DNA from: a virus
Lineage: Duplodnaviria; Heunggongvirae; Uroviricota; Caudoviricetes
Length of the DNA stretch: 18,817 nucleotides
Reading direction: 5' to 3' (one strand)
IMG/VR virus record: IMGVR_UViG_2563366863_000004
This document shows positions 7,209 through 17,771 of this stretch, in pieces. The position numbers and the translations under genes are program-made. Under the pieces are notes generated by a model. The model saw nothing but the letters and a program-made list of their open reading frames with translations, was not told the origin of the DNA and searched no databases. The stretch's first letter is position 1. Every line of letters starts with the position of its first letter.

Positions 7209-7952
7209 ATGACACAGACTGAATCAGCGATTCTGGCACATGCCCGGCGGTGTGCGCCTGCGGAGTCGTGCGGCTTCGTGATAAGCACGCCGGAGGGGGA
7301 GTGGTATATCCCTTGTGTGAATATTTCCGCGGAGCCGGAGGCGTATTTTCGTATCGCACCGGAAGACTGGCTGCGGGCAGAGATGCAGGGGGAGATTGTG
7401 GCACTGGTCCACAGTCATCCCGGTGGGCTGCCCTGGCTGAGCGAGGCTGACCGGCGGCTGCAGATAAAAAGCGCACTGCCCTGGTGGCTGGTCTGCCGGG
7501 GTGACATTCACAAATTCCGCTGTGTGCCACATCTGACGGGACGGCGCTTTGAGCACGGGGTGACGGACTGTTACACGCTGTTCCGGGATGCTTATCATCT
7601 GGCGGGGACTGAAATGCCGGATTTTCATCGCGAGGATGACTGGTGGCGCAACGGCCAGAACCTTTACCTGGACAATATGGCGGTCACCGGCTTTTACCGG
7701 GTGCCCCTGTCCTCTGCACAGGCGGGCGATATTCTGCTGTGCTGCTTTGGTGCTTCGGTACCGAACCATGCCGCCATTTACTGCGGTAACGGTGAGCTGC
7801 TTCACCATCTGCCTGAACAACTGAGTAAACGGGAGAGGTATTCCGAAAAATGGCAACGACGAACGCATTCTGTCTGGCGTCACCGCCACTGGCACGCATC
7901 TGCCTTCACGGGGATTTACAACGATTTGGCCGCCGCCTCAGCCTGTATGTGA
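7209..7952 (+). CDS. K: Tail tip assembly protein K (JAB/MPN + NlpC/P60 two-domain protein)
   Basis: Frame is open from ATG 7209 (MTQTESAILAHARRCAPAESCGF...). It carries a JAMM-type H-S-H-x7-S-x2-D motif (VALVHSHPGGLPWLSEAD) and an NlpC/P60-like Cys/His (GVTDCYTLF ... NHAAIY). No good SD precedes 7209. An in-frame ATG at 7383 would drop the N-terminal part of the JAB domain, so the long form is preferred. Confidence 0.75.
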   Translation: MTQTESAILAHARRCAPAESCGFVISTPEGEWYIPCVNISAEPEAYFRIAPEDWLRAEMQGEIVALVHSHPGGLPWLSEADRRLQIKSALPWWLVCRGDIHKFRCVPHLTGRRFEHGVTDCYTLFRDAYHLAGTEMPDFHREDDWWRNGQNLYLDNMAVTGFYRVPLSSAQAGDILLCCFGASVPNHAAIYCGNGELLHHLPEQLSKRERYSEKWQRRTHSVWRHRHWHASAFTGIYNDLAAASACM

Positions 7953-8530
7953 ACACGGCAGCGGAAGCCATTCGCGCCCTGTCGATGCAGATGCCGGGCT
8001 TTCGCCGTCAGATGAACGAAGGCTGGTACCAGATACGTATTGCCGGTGATGACACGGCACCGGAGGCGGTGTACGCCCGTCTTCACGAACAGCTGGGTGA
8101 GGGAACGGTCATCCACATTGTGCCGCGACTGGCCGGAGCCGGAAAGGGTGGACTGCAGATTGTGCTGGGGGCGGCAGCCATCGTGGGCTCTTTCTTCACT
8201 GCCGGGGCATCAATGGCGTTATGGGGTTCAGCCCTGGCAGCCGGTGGTTTTTCTGCCACCACGATGCTGTTTTCACTTGGAGCCAGCATGATTCTGGGCG
8301 GTGTGGCCCAGATGCTGGCCCCGAAGGCAAAAACACCGGATTACCGCGCAACGGATAACGGCAGACAGAACACGTACTTTTCCTCACTGGATAACATGAT
8401 TGCCCAGGGGAACCCGATGCCGGTGCCTTACGGGGAAATGCTGGTTGGCTCCCGCCGTATATCCCAGGACATCAGCACCCGTGATGAAGGCGGGGGCGGA
8501 AAGGTCGTGGTTATCGGGCGGCAGGGGTAA
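7850..8530 (+). CDS. I: Tail tip assembly protein I
   Basis: 226 aa ORF (MATTNAFCLASPPLARICLHGDLQRFGRR...) overlapping the 3' end of K by about 100 nt in another frame, as K/I do in lambda. Hydrophobic Gly/Ala-rich C-terminal half. Exact start uncertain. Confidence 0.75.
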   Translation: MATTNAFCLASPPLARICLHGDLQRFGRRLSLYVNTAAEAIRALSMQMPGFRRQMNEGWYQIRIAGDDTAPEAVYARLHEQLGEGTVIHIVPRLAGAGKGGLQIVLGAAAIVGSFFTAGASMALWGSALAAGGFSATTMLFSLGASMILGGVAQMLAPKAKTPDYRATDNGRQNTYFSSLDNMIAQGNPMPVPYGEMLVGSRRISQDISTRDEGGGGKVVVIGRQG

Positions 8531-8544
8531 AAAGAATAAAAAAA

Positions 8545-8576
8545 TCCCGCAGTGATCGCGGACAGGAACTGCGGGA
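8545..8576 (-). terminator. Hairpin with a T-tract on the minus strand (candidate intrinsic terminator for a leftward transcript)
   Basis: 8-bp stem tCCCGCAG (8545-8552) / CTGCGGGa (8569-8576) with a 16-nt loop. On the minus strand it is followed by ATTTTTTTATTCTTTTT (complement of 8531-8544). The loop is large, so confidence is low. Confidence 0.3.
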
Positions 8577-8740
8577 GAGTTACGAAGATTAAGTGTAAGG
8601 AATTATTCTTATATCACGACAAAAAAATTAACGCAGAGAAATTATACGCGCCACAGTCAGTGTGTGAAAATGTGAAGATATTCAGAATTTTTATGCCATT
8701 ACCGGTTTTAACCAACAGGATTATCGGTGGGCATGAAAGA

Positions 8741-8776
8741 AAACCCCGGTATCTGCTGATACCGGGGTTTCTCTTT
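8741..8776. terminator. Perfect 12-bp hairpin flanked by U-rich tracts on both strands (possible bidirectional terminator)
   Basis: AAACCCCGGTAT (8741-8752), loop ctgctg, ATACCGGGGTTT (8759-8770). + strand tail is ctcttt; minus-strand tail is ttttctttc. Confidence 0.35.
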
Positions 8777-8873
8777 AGCATGGCAGAAATGTGTTTCATG
8801 CTTTTCGGGCGAAGGATATCCGACTTCTGTACGGAATGGCAAGTGGCGGTTAATTTATTCAGGGGAAGGCTGT

Positions 8874-11800
8874 ATGGGAAAAGGTGGCGGTAAGGCACAC
8901 ACGCCTCGTGAGGCGAAGGATAATCTCAAATCCACGCAGATGATGAGTGTGATTGATGCGATTGGTGAGGGACCGATAGAAGGTCCGGTGAAGGGACTGC
9001 AGAGTATTCTGGTGAACAAAACCCCGCTGACGGACACGGACGGTAATCCCGTGATACACGGTGTGACCGCGGTCTGGCGTGCCGGGGAGCAGGAGCAGAC
9101 ACCACCGGAAGGCTTTGAGTCCTCCGGAGCTGAAACCGGACTGGGCGTGGAAGTGACGAAGGCAAAACCGGTGACGCGCACCATTACGTCCGCGAACATT
9201 GACCGCCTGCGGGTTACCTTCGGGGTGCAGTCACTGGTGGAGACCACCTCAAAGGGTGACCGTAACCCGGCAACCGTCCGCCTGCTGATTCAGTTACAGC
9301 GTAACGGTAACTGGGTGACAGAAAAGGACGTCACCATTAACGGCAAGACCACCTCACAGTTCCTGGCCTCGGTGATTCTGGATAATCTGCCTCCCCGGCC
9401 CTTTAACATCCGGATGGTCAGGGAGACGGCGGACAGCACCACGGACCAGCTGCAGAATAAGACGCTGTGGTCGTCATACACCGAAATCATCGATGTGAAA
9501 CAGTGCTACCCGAACACGGCCATTGTGGGGCTGCAGGTGGATGCGGAGCAGTTCGGCGGCCAGCAGATGACGGTGAACTACCATATCCGCGGTCGTATCA
9601 TCCAGGTGCCGTCAAACTATGACCCGGAAAAACGCACGTACAGTGGTATCTGGGACGGCAGTCTGAAACCGGCATACAGCAACAACCCGGCCTGGTGCCT
9701 GTGGGACATGCTGACTCACCCGCGCTACGGCATGGGAAAACGTCTGGGGGCGGCGGATGTGGACAAGTGGGCGCTGTATGCCATCGGGCAGTACTGCGAT
9801 CAGACGGTCCCGGATGGTTTCGGGGGGACCGAGCCGCGGATGACCTTTAATGCGTACCTGGCACAACAGCGTAAGGCGTGGGACGTTCTCAGTGATTTCT
9901 GCTCTGCGATGCGCTGTATGCCGGTATGGAACGGTCAGACGCTGACGTTCGTTCAGGACCGCCCGTCGGATGTGGTGTGGCCGTACACCAACAGCGATGT
10001 GGTGGTGGATGATAACGGCGTGGGATTCCGCTACAGCTTCAGTGCCCTGAAGGACCGGCACACGGCGGTGGAGGTGAATTACACCGACCCGCAGAACGGC
10101 TGGCAGACCTCCACGGAACTGGTGGAAGACCCGGAAGCCATACTGCGCTACGGGCGCAATCTGCTGAAGATGGACGCGTTCGGCTGTACCAGCCGCGGTC
10201 AGGCCCACCGTGCCGGACTGTGGGTGATAAAGACCGAACTGCTGGAAACGCAGACGGTGGACTTCACGCTCGGGTCTCAGGGGCTGCGGCACACACCCGG
10301 TGACATTATTGAAATCTGTGATAATGACTATGCCGGGACCCTGACCGGCGGACGTGTCCTGTCCATTGATGCTGCCACCCGCACCCTGACGCTGGACCGT
10401 GAGGTTACCCTGCCGGAGACAGGTACATCGGCGGTGAACCTGATTAACGGCAGCGGTAAGCCGGTGAGTGTGGACATCACCGCACACCCCGCGCCGGACC
10501 GGATACAGGTCAGTACCCTGCCTGATGGTGTGGAGACATACGGGGTGTGGGGACTCTCCCTGCCGTCACTGCGCCGTCGCCTGTTCCGCTGTGTCTCCGT
10601 CCGGGAAAACACGGACGGCACCTTTGCCATCACGGCGGTGCAGCACGTACCGGAAAAAGAAGCCATCGTGGATAACGGTGCCCGCTTTGAGCCGCAGTCA
10701 GGTTCCCTGAACAGCGTCATCCCACCGGCAGTGCAGCACCTGACGGTGGAGGTGAGCGCAGCTGACGGCCAGTATCTGGCGCAGGCGAAATGGGACACGC
10801 CGCGGGTGGTGAAGGGTGTGCGCTTCAGTCTGCGTCTGACCAGCGGAAGCGGAGAAGACAGCCGTCTGGTGAGCACCGCCAGCACCGCAGACACGGAGCA
10901 CCGTTTCAGCGGCCTGCCACTGGGGGAATACACCCTGACGGTCAGGGCGATTAACAGTTATGGCCAGCAGGGCGAACCGGCCACCACCACGTTCAGGATT
11001 AACGCACCTGCAAAACCCGCCACCATTGAGCTGACGCCGGGGTATTTTCAGATAACGGCGGTCCCGCGTCTTGCGGTGTATGACCCGACGGTACAGTTTG
11101 AATTCTGGTTCTCAGAAAAACGCATCACGAACACAGCACAGGTGGAAAAATCTGCCCGTTATCTGGGGACCGGCAGTCAGTGGACTGTCCATGGGAGCCG
11201 GATTAAGCCGGGGACGGATTTCTGGTTTTACGTGCGAAGCGTCAACCTGGTGGGAAAATCTGCTTTTGTGGAAGCCAGCGGGCAGCCCAGCAATGATGGT
11301 GAAGGGTATCTGGAAATTTTCCGGGGGCTGATAGATGAGACGCTTCTGGGCCAGGCACTGAAAGAGCGCATTGATGCTTCAGCGCTGCGTACGGAGGTCA
11401 CGCAACTGGAAGAAGACATCCGTCAGCGGATGGACACGGATATCGCAGAAGTGACCCGGAAAATCGGGAAGGCGGAAAACAGCCTCACGCAGCTGGTTGC
11501 GAAAAAGAATGAGGACCAGACACTGGCCATCGCGCAGGTGAGCCAGAAAGTGGACCGGGTGAGCAGTGAAATCTCACAGACTGTCAGCCAGGGGCAGTCA
11601 GAAAACGCCCGACAGATAGCACAGGTCCGCCAGTACGTGGATAAAAAAGGGAGTGAAATTACCTCGACCACGGATAAAAAGCTGGGTGACCAGGCCGTGA
11701 CCATACAGCAAATCCAGCGGGTTCAGTCAGACACGCGCAATGAGCTGAATGCCATGTATATGCTGAAGGTGCAGAAAACAAAAAACGGTATTCCCTATGT

Positions 11801-12566
11801 GGCCGGGATTGGCGCGGGGATTGAGGATGTTGATGGTCAGACGCTGAGCAGTATTCTGCTGCAGGCGGACCGTATCGCGATGATTACCCCGGAGAACGGC
11901 AACACCACGCCGCTGTTTGTGGCGCAGGGGAATCAGCTGTTCATGAACGACGTGTTCCTGAAGCGACTGTTTGCGGTGAGCATCACGTCATCCGGCAATC
12001 CTCCTACGTTTTCCCTGACGCCGGATGGCAGGCTGACAGCCCGCAATGCGGATATCAGTGGAGCCATCACGGCGAATACCGGCACGCTCAATAATGTCAC
12101 CATTAACGAGAACTGTGTCATCAGAGGGAAACTGTCTGCAAACCAGATTGAAGGCGATCTCGTTAAAACAGTGGGTAAGGTTTTCCCCCGTGACTCCCGT
12201 GCACCGGAGCGTTGGCCATCAGGAACCATTACCGTCAGGGTTTATGACGATCAGCCGTTTAACCGGCAGATTGTTATTCCGGCGGTGGCTTTCAGCGGTG
12301 CCAGACATGAGCGGGAGAACAGCGATACTTATTCGTCATGCCGCCTGATAGTACGGAAAAACGGTGCTGAAATTTATAACCGTACCGCGCTGGATAATAC
12401 GCTGATTTACAGTGGTGTTATTGATATGCCTGCTGGTCGCGGCCACATGACGCTGGAGTTTTCTGTATCAGCATGGTGGGTAAATGGCTGGTATCCCACA
12501 GCAAGTATCAGCGATTTGCTGGTTGTTGTGATGAAGAAAGCCACTGCAGGCATCACGATTAGCTGA
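8874..12566 (+). CDS. J: Central tail fibre / host specificity protein J
   Basis: 1230-aa ORF with an AGGGGAAGG SD. N-terminus [39 protein letters not shown] matches lambda gpJ closely. Fibronectin-III-like middle, coiled-coil segment, C-terminal receptor-binding region. Confidence 0.95.
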
Positions 12567-12633: not shown

Positions 12634-13233
12634 ATGCGTAAAGTTTGTGCAGCCATTTTGTCCGCAGCCATCTGTCTGTCCGTATCCGGTGCGCCTGCAT
12701 GGGCGTCTGAACATCAGTCCACACTGAGCGCGGGGTATCTTCATGCCCGTACGAACGCTCCCGGCAGCGATAATCTGAACGGGATTAACGTGAAATACCG
12801 TTATGAGTTTACGGACGCGCTGGGGCTGATTACGTCCTTCAGTTATGCCAATGCTGAGGATGAGCAAAAAACGCACTACAGCGATACCCGCTGGCATGAA
12901 GATTCCGAGCGTAACCGCTGGTTCAGCGTGATGGCAGGGCCGTCTGTACGCGTGAATGAATGGTTCAGCGCGTATGCGATGGCGGGTGTGGCTTACAGCC
13001 GTGTGTCGACTTTCTCCGGGGATTATCTCCGCGTAACTGACAACAAGGGGAAAACGCACGATGTGCTGACCGGAAGTGATGACGGTCGCCACAGCAACAC
13101 GTCTCTGGCGTGGGGGGCTGGCGTGCAGTTTAACCCGACCGAATCCGTAACCATTGACCTTGCTTATGAAGGTTCCGGTAGTGGCGACTGGCGAACGGAT
13201 GCATTTATTGTTGGTATCGGATACCGTTTCTGA
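12634..13233 (+). CDS. lom: Outer membrane beta-barrel protein Lom (Ail/Lom/PagC family), a lysogenic-conversion moron
   Basis: 199 aa with an N-terminal signal peptide (MRKVCAAILSAAICLSVSGAPAWA), GINVKYRYE and a C-terminal ...YEGSGSGDWRTDAFIVGIGYRF typical of lambda Lom; GAGAGG SD; terminators on both sides. Confidence 0.9.
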   Translation: MRKVCAAILSAAICLSVSGAPAWASEHQSTLSAGYLHARTNAPGSDNLNGINVKYRYEFTDALGLITSFSYANAEDEQKTHYSDTRWHEDSERNRWFSVMAGPSVRVNEWFSAYAMAGVAYSRVSTFSGDYLRVTDNKGKTHDVLTGSDDGRHSNTSLAWGAGVQFNPTESVTIDLAYEGSGSGDWRTDAFIVGIGYRF

Positions 13234-14955: not shown

Positions 14956-15459
14956 TTACTGATAGTGTTTTATGTTCAGATAATGCCCGATGACTTTGTC
15001 ATGCAGCTCCACCGATTTTGAGAACGACAGTGACTTCCGTCCCAGCCTTGCCAGATGTTGTCTCAGATTCAGGTTATGTCGCTCAATGCGCTGAGTGTAA
15101 CGCTTGCTGATTACGTGCAGCTTTCCCTTCAGGCGGGATTCATACAGCGGCCAGCCATCCGTCATCCATACCACGACCTCAAAGGCCGACAGCAGGCTCA
15201 GAAGACGCTCCAGTGTGGCCAGAGTGCGTTCACCGAAGACGTGCGCCACAACCGTCCTCCGTATCCTGTCATACGCGTAAAACAGCCAGCGCTGGCGCGA
15301 TTTAGCCCCGACATAGCCCCACTGTTCGCCCATTTCCGCGCAGACGATGACGTCACTGCCCGGCTGTATGCGCGAGGTTACCGACTGCGGCCTGAGTTTT
15401 TTAAGTGACGTAAAATCGTGTTGAGGCCAACGCCCATAATGCGGGCGGTTGCCCGGCAT
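14956..15459 (-). CDS. insB: IS1 InsB (transposase catalytic part; expressed as InsAB' by -1 frameshift)
   Basis: 167-aa [40 protein letters not shown]... The TTAAAAAACTC frameshift motif is on the minus strand (complement of 15394-15404), just upstream of the insA stop. Confidence 0.88.
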
Positions 15460-15653
15460 CCAACACCATTCATGGCCATATCAATGATTTTCTGGTGTGT
15501 ACCGGGTTGAGAAGCGGTGTAAGTGAACTGCAGTTGCCATGTTTTACGGCAGTGAGAGCAGAGATAGCGCTGATGTCCGGCAGTACTTTTACCGTTACGC
15601 ACCACGCCTTCAGTAGCTGAGCAGGAGGGACAACTGATGGAGATGGAAGCCAC
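15378..15653 (-). CDS. insA: IS1 InsA (DNA-binding regulator / N-terminal part of transposase)
   Basis: 91 aa, [91 protein letters not shown], essentially canonical IS1 InsA with its Zn-finger cysteines. Confidence 0.92.
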
Positions 15654-17187: not shown

Positions 17188-17771
17188 TGGCATTCAGAAT
17201 GAGTGAACAAGCACGGACCATAAAAATTTATAATCTGCTGGCCGGAACTAATGAATTTATTGGTGAAGGTGACGCATATATTCCGCCTCATACAGGTCTG
17301 CCAGCAAACAGTACCGATATTGCACCACCAGATATTCCTGCTGGCTTTGTGGCTGTTTTCAACAGTGATGAGGCATCGTGGCATCTCGTTGAAGACCATC
17401 GGGGGAAAACGGTTTATGACGTAGCGTCAGGGGACGAGTTATTTATTTCTGAACTCGGTCCGTTACCGGAAAATGTTACCTGGTTATCGCCGGAAGGGGA
17501 GTTTCAGAAGTGGAACGGCACAGCCTGGGTGAAGGATACGGAAGCAGAAAAACTGTTCCGGATCCGGGAGGCGGAAGAAACAAAAAACAACCTGATGCAG
17601 GTAGCCAGTGAGCATATTGCGCCGCTTCAGGATGCTGCAGATCTGGAAATTGCAACGGAGGAAGAAACCTCATTGCTGGAAGCCTGGAAAAAGTATCGGG
17701 TGTTGCTGAACCGTGTTGATACATCAACTGCACCTGATATTGAGTGGCCTACGAACCCTGTCAGGGAGTAA
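17187..17771 (+). CDS. tfa: Tail fibre assembly protein Tfa
   Basis: 194 aa, [54 protein letters not shown]..., matching lambda Tfa as I recall it; start overlaps the stf stop by 1 nt (ATAATG). Confidence 0.9.
17607..17771. repeat. Direct repeat copy 1: tfa 3' end
   Basis: Encodes [55 protein letters not shown] diverged copy (mostly synonymous or conservative changes) lies at 18656-18817. Confidence 0.7.

Follow-up and report, generated by a model that had tools for sequence, protein, structure and literature searches.

A predicted small RNA gene, a divergent allele of the PasB/EcOnc22–24 family, in the gap between prophage tail genes I and J

Why are the tail genes I and J, which in phage lambda lie 60 bp apart (15445–15504), separated by 343 bp in a prophage? 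The question is raised by the virus sequence IMGVR_UViG_2563366863_000004 (Caudoviricetes), an 18,817-nucleotide stretch of DNA that was analyzed at its full length and is called the window here. A first-pass annotation, made from the letters alone, had stated correctly that the two lambda genes are only a few tens of base pairs apart and had read the AT-rich insert of the window as a possible small regulatory RNA or moron, with a leftward transcript of roughly 75 nt. Our analysis indicates that the left half of the gap is very probably a self-contained minus-strand gene for a small RNA (sRNA) of the PasB/EcOnc22–24 family, by homology an Hfq-dependent, trans-acting base-pairing RNA. The element is, hence, not new: the sRNA family of which it forms a divergent allele has been published. 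The general idea of a leftward sRNA in a noncoding moron with a promoter and a terminator of its own was sound, whereas the particular promoter and hairpin that had been paired to form the transcript were the wrong ones.

The gap, as delimited by ORF ends and Pfam matches, spans 8531–8873, and its AT-richness was confirmed (GC content of 0.385–0.40, compared to 0.56–0.62 in the flanks). A repeat search of positions 8500–8900 returned two inverted repeats only, both perfect, and a promoter scan found three promoter-like sites in the region against an expected 0.6 ± 0.7. The open reading frames (ORFs) in the gap, of 113 aa (+), 94 aa (−) and 44 aa (−), all traverse the hairpins. They had been said to lack ribosome-binding sites, which holds for ATG 8780, the sole internal start inspected, upstream of which no Shine–Dalgarno sequence was seen. 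The gap consists of two separable halves, a left sRNA cassette (8536–8694) and a right J-proximal module (8695–8873).

In the left half, a strong promoter, an AU-rich body of ~97 nt and the 8545–8576 hairpin followed by U7 make up what is predicted to be a complete leftward transcription unit (Table 1), its promoter and terminator being predictions and not mapped ends. The hairpin has 9-nt arms (8545–8553/8568–8576) and a 14-nt loop, and a terminator scan placed a minus-strand terminator at 8562–8546, followed by AUUUUUUUAU. The U7 on the minus strand bears out the earlier proposal that this hairpin could end only a leftward RNA, antisense to the tail operon. The weak minus-strand sigma70-like pair noted at first pass is present farther to the right, but the stronger promoter of the cassette had been overlooked. 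The predicted RNA folds with −19.4 kcal/mol (z −2.7). Across the family, the conserved blocks are, from 5′ to 3′, UGCGUUA, a U run, three to four A-R-N triplets, (C/U)UCCUU and UUAAUCUUC just 5′ of the terminator, and the triplets and U run were kept in every family allele inspected. The terminator is the sole consensus structure (RNAalifold), and the remaining RNA is predicted to be largely unpaired.

The identity of the unit was established through two sets of experimentally detected RNAs. PasB of enteropathogenic Escherichia coli (EPEC) O127:H6 E2348/69 is an 83-nt RNA from the minus strand of prophage PP6 (NC_011601.1 1466343..1466261; Table S6, PMC8550237). It was validated by Northern blot with the probe AATCCCGCAGTGATCGCGGAGCT and had a log2 fold change of −6.8 in Δhfq (PMC8550237). 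In RefSeq NC_011601.1, PasB sits between a tail assembly gene (end 1466255) and gpJ (start 1466496). The gaps of the window and E2348/69 are collinear through the terminator, body, −10, −35 and ~30 nt further upstream; the stretch homologous to the annotated 83-nt PasB is 8621..8538, and ~57/60 nt of the sRNA promoter region are identical to the E2348/69 pasB promoter region. The PasB probe matches the window exactly over its first 20 nt (8543–8562) and at 20/23 nt overall.

The second set comes from enterohaemorrhagic E. coli (EHEC) O157:H7 Sakai, in which EcOnc22, EcOnc23 and EcOnc24 were described as three homologous Hfq peaks by CRAC (cDNA analysis after cross-linking) in prophages Sp15, Sp14 and Sp11, respectively (Table S2, PMC4104026), with an RNA of ~85 nt by Northern blot that is destabilized in Δhfq (PMC4104026). 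In NC_002695.2, all three map to the I–J gaps of these prophages and are encoded opposite to the tail genes. Position mapping alone is ambiguous because the coordinates in Table S2 of Tree et al. 2014 do not coincide with those of NC_002695.2; at AgvB1 (1.94 Mb; for example, locus L090 621–682), the offset is about +137 to +146, presumably owing to an earlier sequence version, the accession being unnamed in the files of the paper. In the Sakai gap, the EcOnc Northern probe (GGGAGAGAACGATGAAGATTAAC...) falls on the late-sense strand at positions 35–69, in the body adjoining the terminator, with a 23-nt exact prefix and 31/33 nt matched overall. As the probe lies in the PasB-homologous body, EcOnc22–24 and PasB are, therefore, one locus. 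This equivalence is not stated in Zhu et al. 2026 (bioRxiv 10.64898/2026.05.13.724894), where ‘EcOnc’ has 0 occurrences, and Table S6 carries no remark on an EHEC homologue for PasB.

To place the window in this family, a covariance model (R1) was built from 20 alleles, including those identical to E2348/69 PasB and the Sakai RNA and excluding window-like ones. Run against the 18.8-kb window with filters off, R1 gave a single full-length match at 8635–8540(−) (model positions 1–95, 63.3 bits, E 8.6e-11), a score to which the shared terminator contributes much; the next match reached 11 bits. The slot is also the same, with 8536–8634(−) lying between Lambda_tail_I and GpJ as in E2348/69 and in Sakai Sp11, Sp14 and Sp15. 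For the E2348/69 and Sakai alleles, a size of ~83–85 nt and Hfq binding or dependence are established (PMC8550237, PMC4104026). PasB has been described as embedded in a phage structural-gene operon, with IS009 among the commonest structured RNAs at most 10 kb away (Zhu, Shabalina and Storz 2026, bioRxiv 10.64898/2026.05.13.724894). Close to the end of the prophage that holds the tail fibre, at 17530–17728 (+), the window has a full-length match to IS009 (Rfam RF02111; 225 bits, E 1e-55). Two other identities were considered and rejected: AgvB, suggested by the CA-rich minus strand, lies at the PR′ moron site, and its model RF02702 has no match here, while svsR of prophage NC-SV is located at the 3′ end of cI.

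The PasB seed has been placed just 5′ of the terminator (Zhu et al. 2026, bioRxiv 10.64898/2026.05.13.724894). We assayed this with eight PasB partners found by RIL-seq, in which interacting RNAs are ligated and sequenced, in the non-activating condition of Table S3, namely E2348C_2648, the napF 5′ untranslated region (UTR), map, hflX, fabR, caiF, rplX and the tolC 5′ UTR. The chimera regions with 50-nt flanks were searched for the longest run that pairs perfectly, in antiparallel orientation, with the body of the sRNA, and compared to 300 shuffles. This longest-run statistic replaced unconstrained RNAduplex predictions, which gave long, loop-rich and uninterpretable duplexes. For E2348/69 PasB, the longest runs over the eight partners summed to 69 nt, compared to 52.5 ± 2.8 for the shuffles, none of which (0/300) reached 69, and four fragments had runs of at least 9 bp (null mean, 0.28). 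Of the eight longest runs, six fell within nt 37–59, UCCUUCACAUUGAUCUUCAUUUG. Those of napF and fabR/yijD were UCAAUGUGAAG and AAUGUGAAGGA, respectively, that of caiF (UGUGAAGGA) lies at the caiF start codon and that of tolC (CAAAUGAAGA) spans the tolC start codon. The seed location is, thus, supported for the E2348/69 allele. By homology, the prophage would express the sRNA of the window in the direction opposite to the late tail operon; the RNA body, with U run, A-R-N tract and seed 5′ of the terminator, would stay single-stranded, the terminator hairpin with its U tail being the sole stable structure, and the seed would pair with mRNAs, often at a ribosome-binding site or start codon.

Several results weigh against assigning the window allele to this family and function. 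The summed longest runs of the window allele with the same eight partners were 53 nt, compared to 52.8 for the shuffles, of which 158/300 reached 53. The window, E2348/69 and Sakai RNAs are pairwise ~74% identical, so that the window allele reaches no more than this level with either of the validated RNAs. Rfam holds no model for the family and gave no match at the E2348/69 or Sakai pasB loci, which leaves R1 with no curated threshold. The Rfam scan suggested at first pass likewise returned nothing in the gap at gathering score (Rfam 15), IS009 being the sole match in the window. No covariation support for any RNA structure was obtained from the family alignment (RNAalifold), and the invariance of the terminator stem says nothing on selection because the stem was fixed by the search pattern with which the family was collected. 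The 5′ end in the window is a prediction; in E2348/69, the end taken from RNA sequencing coverage falls 14 nt downstream of the start that the promoter predicts. Expression and regulation of the window allele, and its targets, are likewise inferred.

Because the window allele showed no excess complementarity to the E2348/69 partners, its targets are not transferable from E2348/69 PasB, and it probably has others. In the strict sense of sharing the seed and target sites of E2348/69, it is not PasB.

Table 1 Features of the I–J gap and its flanks in the window (promoters, terminator, seed and Hfq contact sites are predictions).
Feature	Position	Strand	Description and basis
Gene I, tail assembly (left flank)	7850..8530	+	TAA stop 8528–8530; ORF list; Pfam Lambda_tail_I, E 1.7e-16
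pasB-family sRNA gene	8536..8634	−	predicted start G 8634, 7 nt past the −10; end in the U run at ~8538
Rho-independent terminator	8538..8576	−	arms 8576–8568 / 8553–8545, then U7 (8544–8538); terminator scan, inverted repeat, RNA fold
Candidate seed	8579..8601	−	single-stranded, UCCUUACACUUAAUCUUCGUAAC; contains family-conserved UCCUU and UUAAUCUUC (8592–8584); family alignment
A-rich (A-R-N)3 tract and 5′ U run	8602..8627	−	AAGAAUAAU (8610–8602) and U run (8627–8621); candidate Hfq contact sites
Sigma70 promoter of sRNA	8641..8668	−	−35 TTCACA (8668–8663), 16-bp spacer, −10 TATAAT (8646–8641); 11/12 in scan
CRP-like palindrome	8671..8686		TGTGA-N6-TCAGA, 24 nt upstream of the −10, in a conserved AT-rich block to ~8694; tentative
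Perfect 13-bp hairpin	8741..8770		flanked by A tract and U tract; terminator-like on both strands; in module 8695–8873
Weak promoter-like pair of the first-pass annotation	8813..8842	−	TTGCCA-18-TATCCT; 9/12 in scan; no further support
Shine–Dalgarno and gene J (right flank)	8862..12566	+	GGGGAAGG at 8862–8869, gene J 8874–12566; Pfam FNIII-A_GpJ, Phage-tail_3

Relatives of the cassette were gathered by the terminator pattern, which gave 59 unique 130-nt variants; five were unrelated and were removed, and all the remaining 54 share one layout. When the family promoters were aligned, the −10 (TATAAT, AATAAT, CATAAT or TATCAT) and the 5′ UGCGUUA were in register, a layout found in 47 unique promoters, and the 24 nt between the −10 and the upstream block varied widely among allele types. 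The upstream block includes the CRP-like palindrome, the only 9/10 match to the CRP core in the window, which is invariant in 54/58 unique family promoters, the four exceptions being promoterless copies beside sodC. Spf is repressed by cyclic AMP (cAMP)–CRP. A putative activation of pasB by CRP would tentatively fit the higher PasB level in LB-type (lysogeny broth) conditions. We keep this idea as a lead only, because the site is centered at about −44.5 instead of the canonical class II −41.5, 3 bp off (24 instead of 21 nt upstream of the −10), because the whole block from −65 to −33 is conserved beyond the half-sites and because about one such match (0.65) is expected by chance per 18.8 kb. 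Readings of the block as a sigma54, Cra, IHF or Fur site were weighed by eye and dropped.

The segment is common. A full or partial copy of the 343 bp was found in 1,669 of 5,426 complete E. coli genomes, and the window-type sRNA allele in 800 of them (~15%), many of human clinical origin; 634 records have it at 99% identity or higher, and it is never annotated. An identical copy of the segment lies in E. coli strain 7/2 (NZ_CP023820.1 1294433–1294775). The Pas sRNAs were reported to be restricted to Escherichia and Shigella (Zhu et al. 2026, bioRxiv 10.64898/2026.05.13.724894), with which a scan of one genome per species for the promoter core agrees, as it returned only Escherichia albertii and one probable contaminant. 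The latter (L086, NZ_JBHTEB010000006.1), a 3,408-bp contig labeled Streptomyces flavalbus in which 36 nt of the pasB promoter core of E. coli prophages recur exactly, is most likely an enterobacterial contaminant contig.

Among 80 loci with an I protein at least 98% identical, gap length could be scored in 64: 43 gaps measured 341–344 bp, 3 were of 338 bp, 11 of 234–240 bp, 1 of 295 bp and 6 of 851–903 bp. The 851–903-bp gaps (loci L016, L041, L079 and L082) contain, beside the PasB-like body, a minus-strand Cu,Zn superoxide dismutase gene, sodC, with its own terminator (Pfam Sod_Cu, E 8e-32). In the L041 type, sodC replaces the pasB promoter and leaves a promoterless PasB-like body downstream. 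Because its long versions carry sodC, the I–J gap is a genuine moron slot. The window gap shares with morons an insertion relative to lambda, its own promoter and terminator and a deviating GC content (0.39 compared to ~0.59); it lacks a protein-coding gene, as the ORFs cross the hairpins and the homologous product is an RNA. A full-length gene of the Ail/Lom outer-membrane protein family lies directly 3′ of J in the window, as in lambda (12634–13233 (+); Pfam Ail_Lom, E 1.5e-125).

Some phages carry different PasB-like cassettes in tandem: four in L144 (250–1400), three in L134 (4350–5110) and at least two in L139 (350–1000, reverse strand). Every cassette comes with an upstream block, −10, body and terminator of its own, and in one L144 unit the terminator is a different one (TCTCCCGT...ACGGGAGA). 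In the published work, tandem duplication was discussed only to exclude it for PasA and PasD (Zhu et al. 2026, bioRxiv 10.64898/2026.05.13.724894). A cassette combines a conserved upstream block, which includes the CRP-like palindrome, and a common terminator with a −35 and spacer region that varies and a seed that varies in part. It is conceivable, and we put it forward tentatively at somewhat below even odds, that the I–J junction is a dedicated, expandable slot for sRNA cassettes, with an allelic series of 50 or more variants and, in some phages, two to four cassettes in a row, in which seeds could be swapped or stacked to retarget host regulons and of which the window allele, with a distinct seed and targets and perhaps catabolite control, would be one version.

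The right half of the gap holds the second inverted repeat. This hairpin (arms 8741–8753/8758–8770, 13 nt, loop 4 nt), correctly described at first pass as perfect and with U-rich tails on both strands, is terminator-like on either strand and stood out from shuffled sequences with z −5.8 and −5.5 on the two strands, and 0/200 shuffles equaled it. Hairpins are also found at this place in other phages. In the lambda I–J spacer (L004 745–805), a GC-rich hairpin, ACCGCC-TGCG-GGCGGT with TTTTGTCATTT after it, immediately precedes the ribosome-binding site of J, and the 240-bp gaps have CAGGCACC...GGTGCCTG or CAGGCATCC...GGATGCCTG, then TTGTTTTTG, at the same place before J; a compensatory C-G to T-A change distinguishes these two versions, and their U run is confined to the + strand. 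In L036 and L197 (295-bp gap), the hairpin has been lost through a deletion of 48 bp bounded by direct AGAAA repeats, with the remaining window-type right half kept. Because lambda and the 240-bp gaps have a hairpin at the same place, we read the second hairpin as a terminator-like element before J; it appears better explained as the version, in this J allele, of a conserved rightward terminator or insulator hairpin, through which Q-modified polymerase would read in lytic growth. No discussion of the lambda terminator-like hairpin before J was found in the literature examined.

The two halves come in two types each, and all four combinations are found (window, ASU11, E2348/69 and an Stx2c phage). 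The right half is 100% identical in the 13 phage records that carry it, and no diverged homologues exist by which it could be tested comparatively. Of the 5,426 genomes, 1,445 have it, each at a single site. A dispersed mobile repeat, considered for the 12-bp hairpin of the first-pass annotation, was rejected on this one-site count; the two ‘places’ reported per genome presumably reflect the palindrome on both strands. Existing records contain two annotations here, both probably artefacts: phage ASU11 lists a ‘hypothetical protein’ (L002 1659–1859, ASU11_gp9c) over the right half, equivalent to window ~8690–8893, which crosses the 12-bp hairpin and overlaps the J start, and record ON470597 lists a ‘tail fiber protein’ over the gap.

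Three other explanations were weighed against a trans-acting sRNA of the PasB/EcOnc22–24 family. The leftward RNA of ~75 nt proposed at first pass, running from the promoter at 8842–8813 to the hairpin at 8741–8770 beside or instead of the PasB-like RNA, could draw on the 9/12 promoter-like pair, on the minus-strand hairpin with its following UUUUCUUUC, on the stable fold of an 86-nt segment (z −5.8) and on the best sub-threshold Rfam match by E-value in the gap, STnc310 (19.4 bits, E 0.48). With 40 as the gathering score, that match falls far short, and it reflects a terminator-like shape; R1 detects no second family copy and no mappable published Hfq-bound RNA matches the segment. The precise deletion of the hairpin in L036 and L197 with other gap sequence kept, and its homologues in lambda and the 240-bp gaps with the U run on the + strand only, also speak against such an RNA; the identity of the module in the 13 phage records makes conservation unusable as a test. 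We found the proposal unsupported and hold it to be improbable. Still less credible, to the point of being very nearly dismissed, is a nonfunctional spacer or decayed protein-coding moron in which hairpins and promoter-like sites are incidental. The gap of some relatives does carry a real protein-coding moron, minus-strand sodC, and the PasB-like body of the L041 type has lost its promoter, but homologous RNAs were detected experimentally in two pathotypes, the layout was kept across 54 variants and tandemly multiplied in some phages, and the promoter is near consensus.

A role mainly in cis deserves somewhat more weight and is nonetheless unlikely: the sRNA would act on the late polycistronic mRNA, to whose I–J spacer it is fully complementary and with which it is convergent, by cleavage or blocking of leaky late transcripts in lysogens, and would be silenced by transcriptional interference in lytic growth. 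In all relatives examined, the sRNA gene is placed directly between I and J, within the late transcription unit and on the other strand. Within the 18.8-kb window, no target of the sRNA was found beyond chance, and there is no other complementary site of at least 10 nt, as a cis role would have it. What tells against it is that E2348/69 PasB uses a defined seed to join many unlinked mRNAs of core and virulence genes in Hfq-dependent chimeras, which is the behavior of a trans-acting RNA, and that nothing in the analysis shows an effect on I or J expression; cis and trans roles are compatible with each other.

Taken as a PasB/EcOnc22–24 allele, a very common prophage segment that is unannotated in all records examined gains a concrete function, and the EHEC Hfq-CRAC and EPEC RIL-seq literatures are joined, as two names refer to one locus. 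The window allele is widespread and has a diverged seed, so target results for E2348/69 PasB should not be carried over to it. If the picture of cassettes and arrays is true, the I–J slot would offer a simple natural system for the evolution and exchange of phage sRNA seeds.

Among known systems, E2348/69 PasB is the closest. Both RNAs occupy the I–J slot antisense to the late operon and end a few nt past the I stop, with the terminator stem CCCGCAG/CUGCGGG, a U7 tail and a near-identical promoter region; both have the body order 5′ UGCGUUA, U run, A-R-N tract, UCCUU and AUCUUC, and IS009 at most 10 kb away. They differ in overall identity (~74%, and ~68% in the body), in the terminator loop, which is 5 nt longer in the window, and in the seed (UCCUUACACUUAAUCUUCGUAAC in the window compared to UCCUUCACAUUGAUCUUCAUUUG in PasB). 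Published PasB variants were described as differing by a few nucleotides (Zhu et al. 2026, bioRxiv 10.64898/2026.05.13.724894). The 83-nt PasB query and the window allele agree exactly over 25 nt at most, less than the 28-nt word of that survey, and its main search may have missed the window allele, to judge by the word length. EcOnc22, EcOnc23 and EcOnc24 share slot and architecture with the window and differ in sequence (~74% identity), in the Sakai −10 region AATAAT and in another spacer sequence; the Sakai gaps are of the 240-bp type with an 8-bp hairpin, unlike that of the window.

The anti-sRNAs AgvB and AsxR (RF02702 and RF02703) are of the same kind, being prophage-encoded, short and Hfq-binding RNAs in which the 3′ terminator is conserved and the targeting part varies, and they also have A-R-N motifs and form an autonomous cassette within the late region. 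They differ in lying at the PR′ moron site instead of between I and J, in their length of 51–60 nt and in their unrelated sequence. The window element does not belong to them, given its other location and the lack of an Rfam match, in a search that detected AgvB where expected in Sakai as a control. With the lambdoid morons (Juhala et al. 2000), finally, it shares its place as an insertion between two genes that almost adjoin in lambda, an odd base composition and a promoter and a terminator of its own. By homology, it would be expressed from the prophage as they are, examples being lom in the window and sodC in the I–J gap of relatives, and it differs from them in encoding an RNA instead of a protein.

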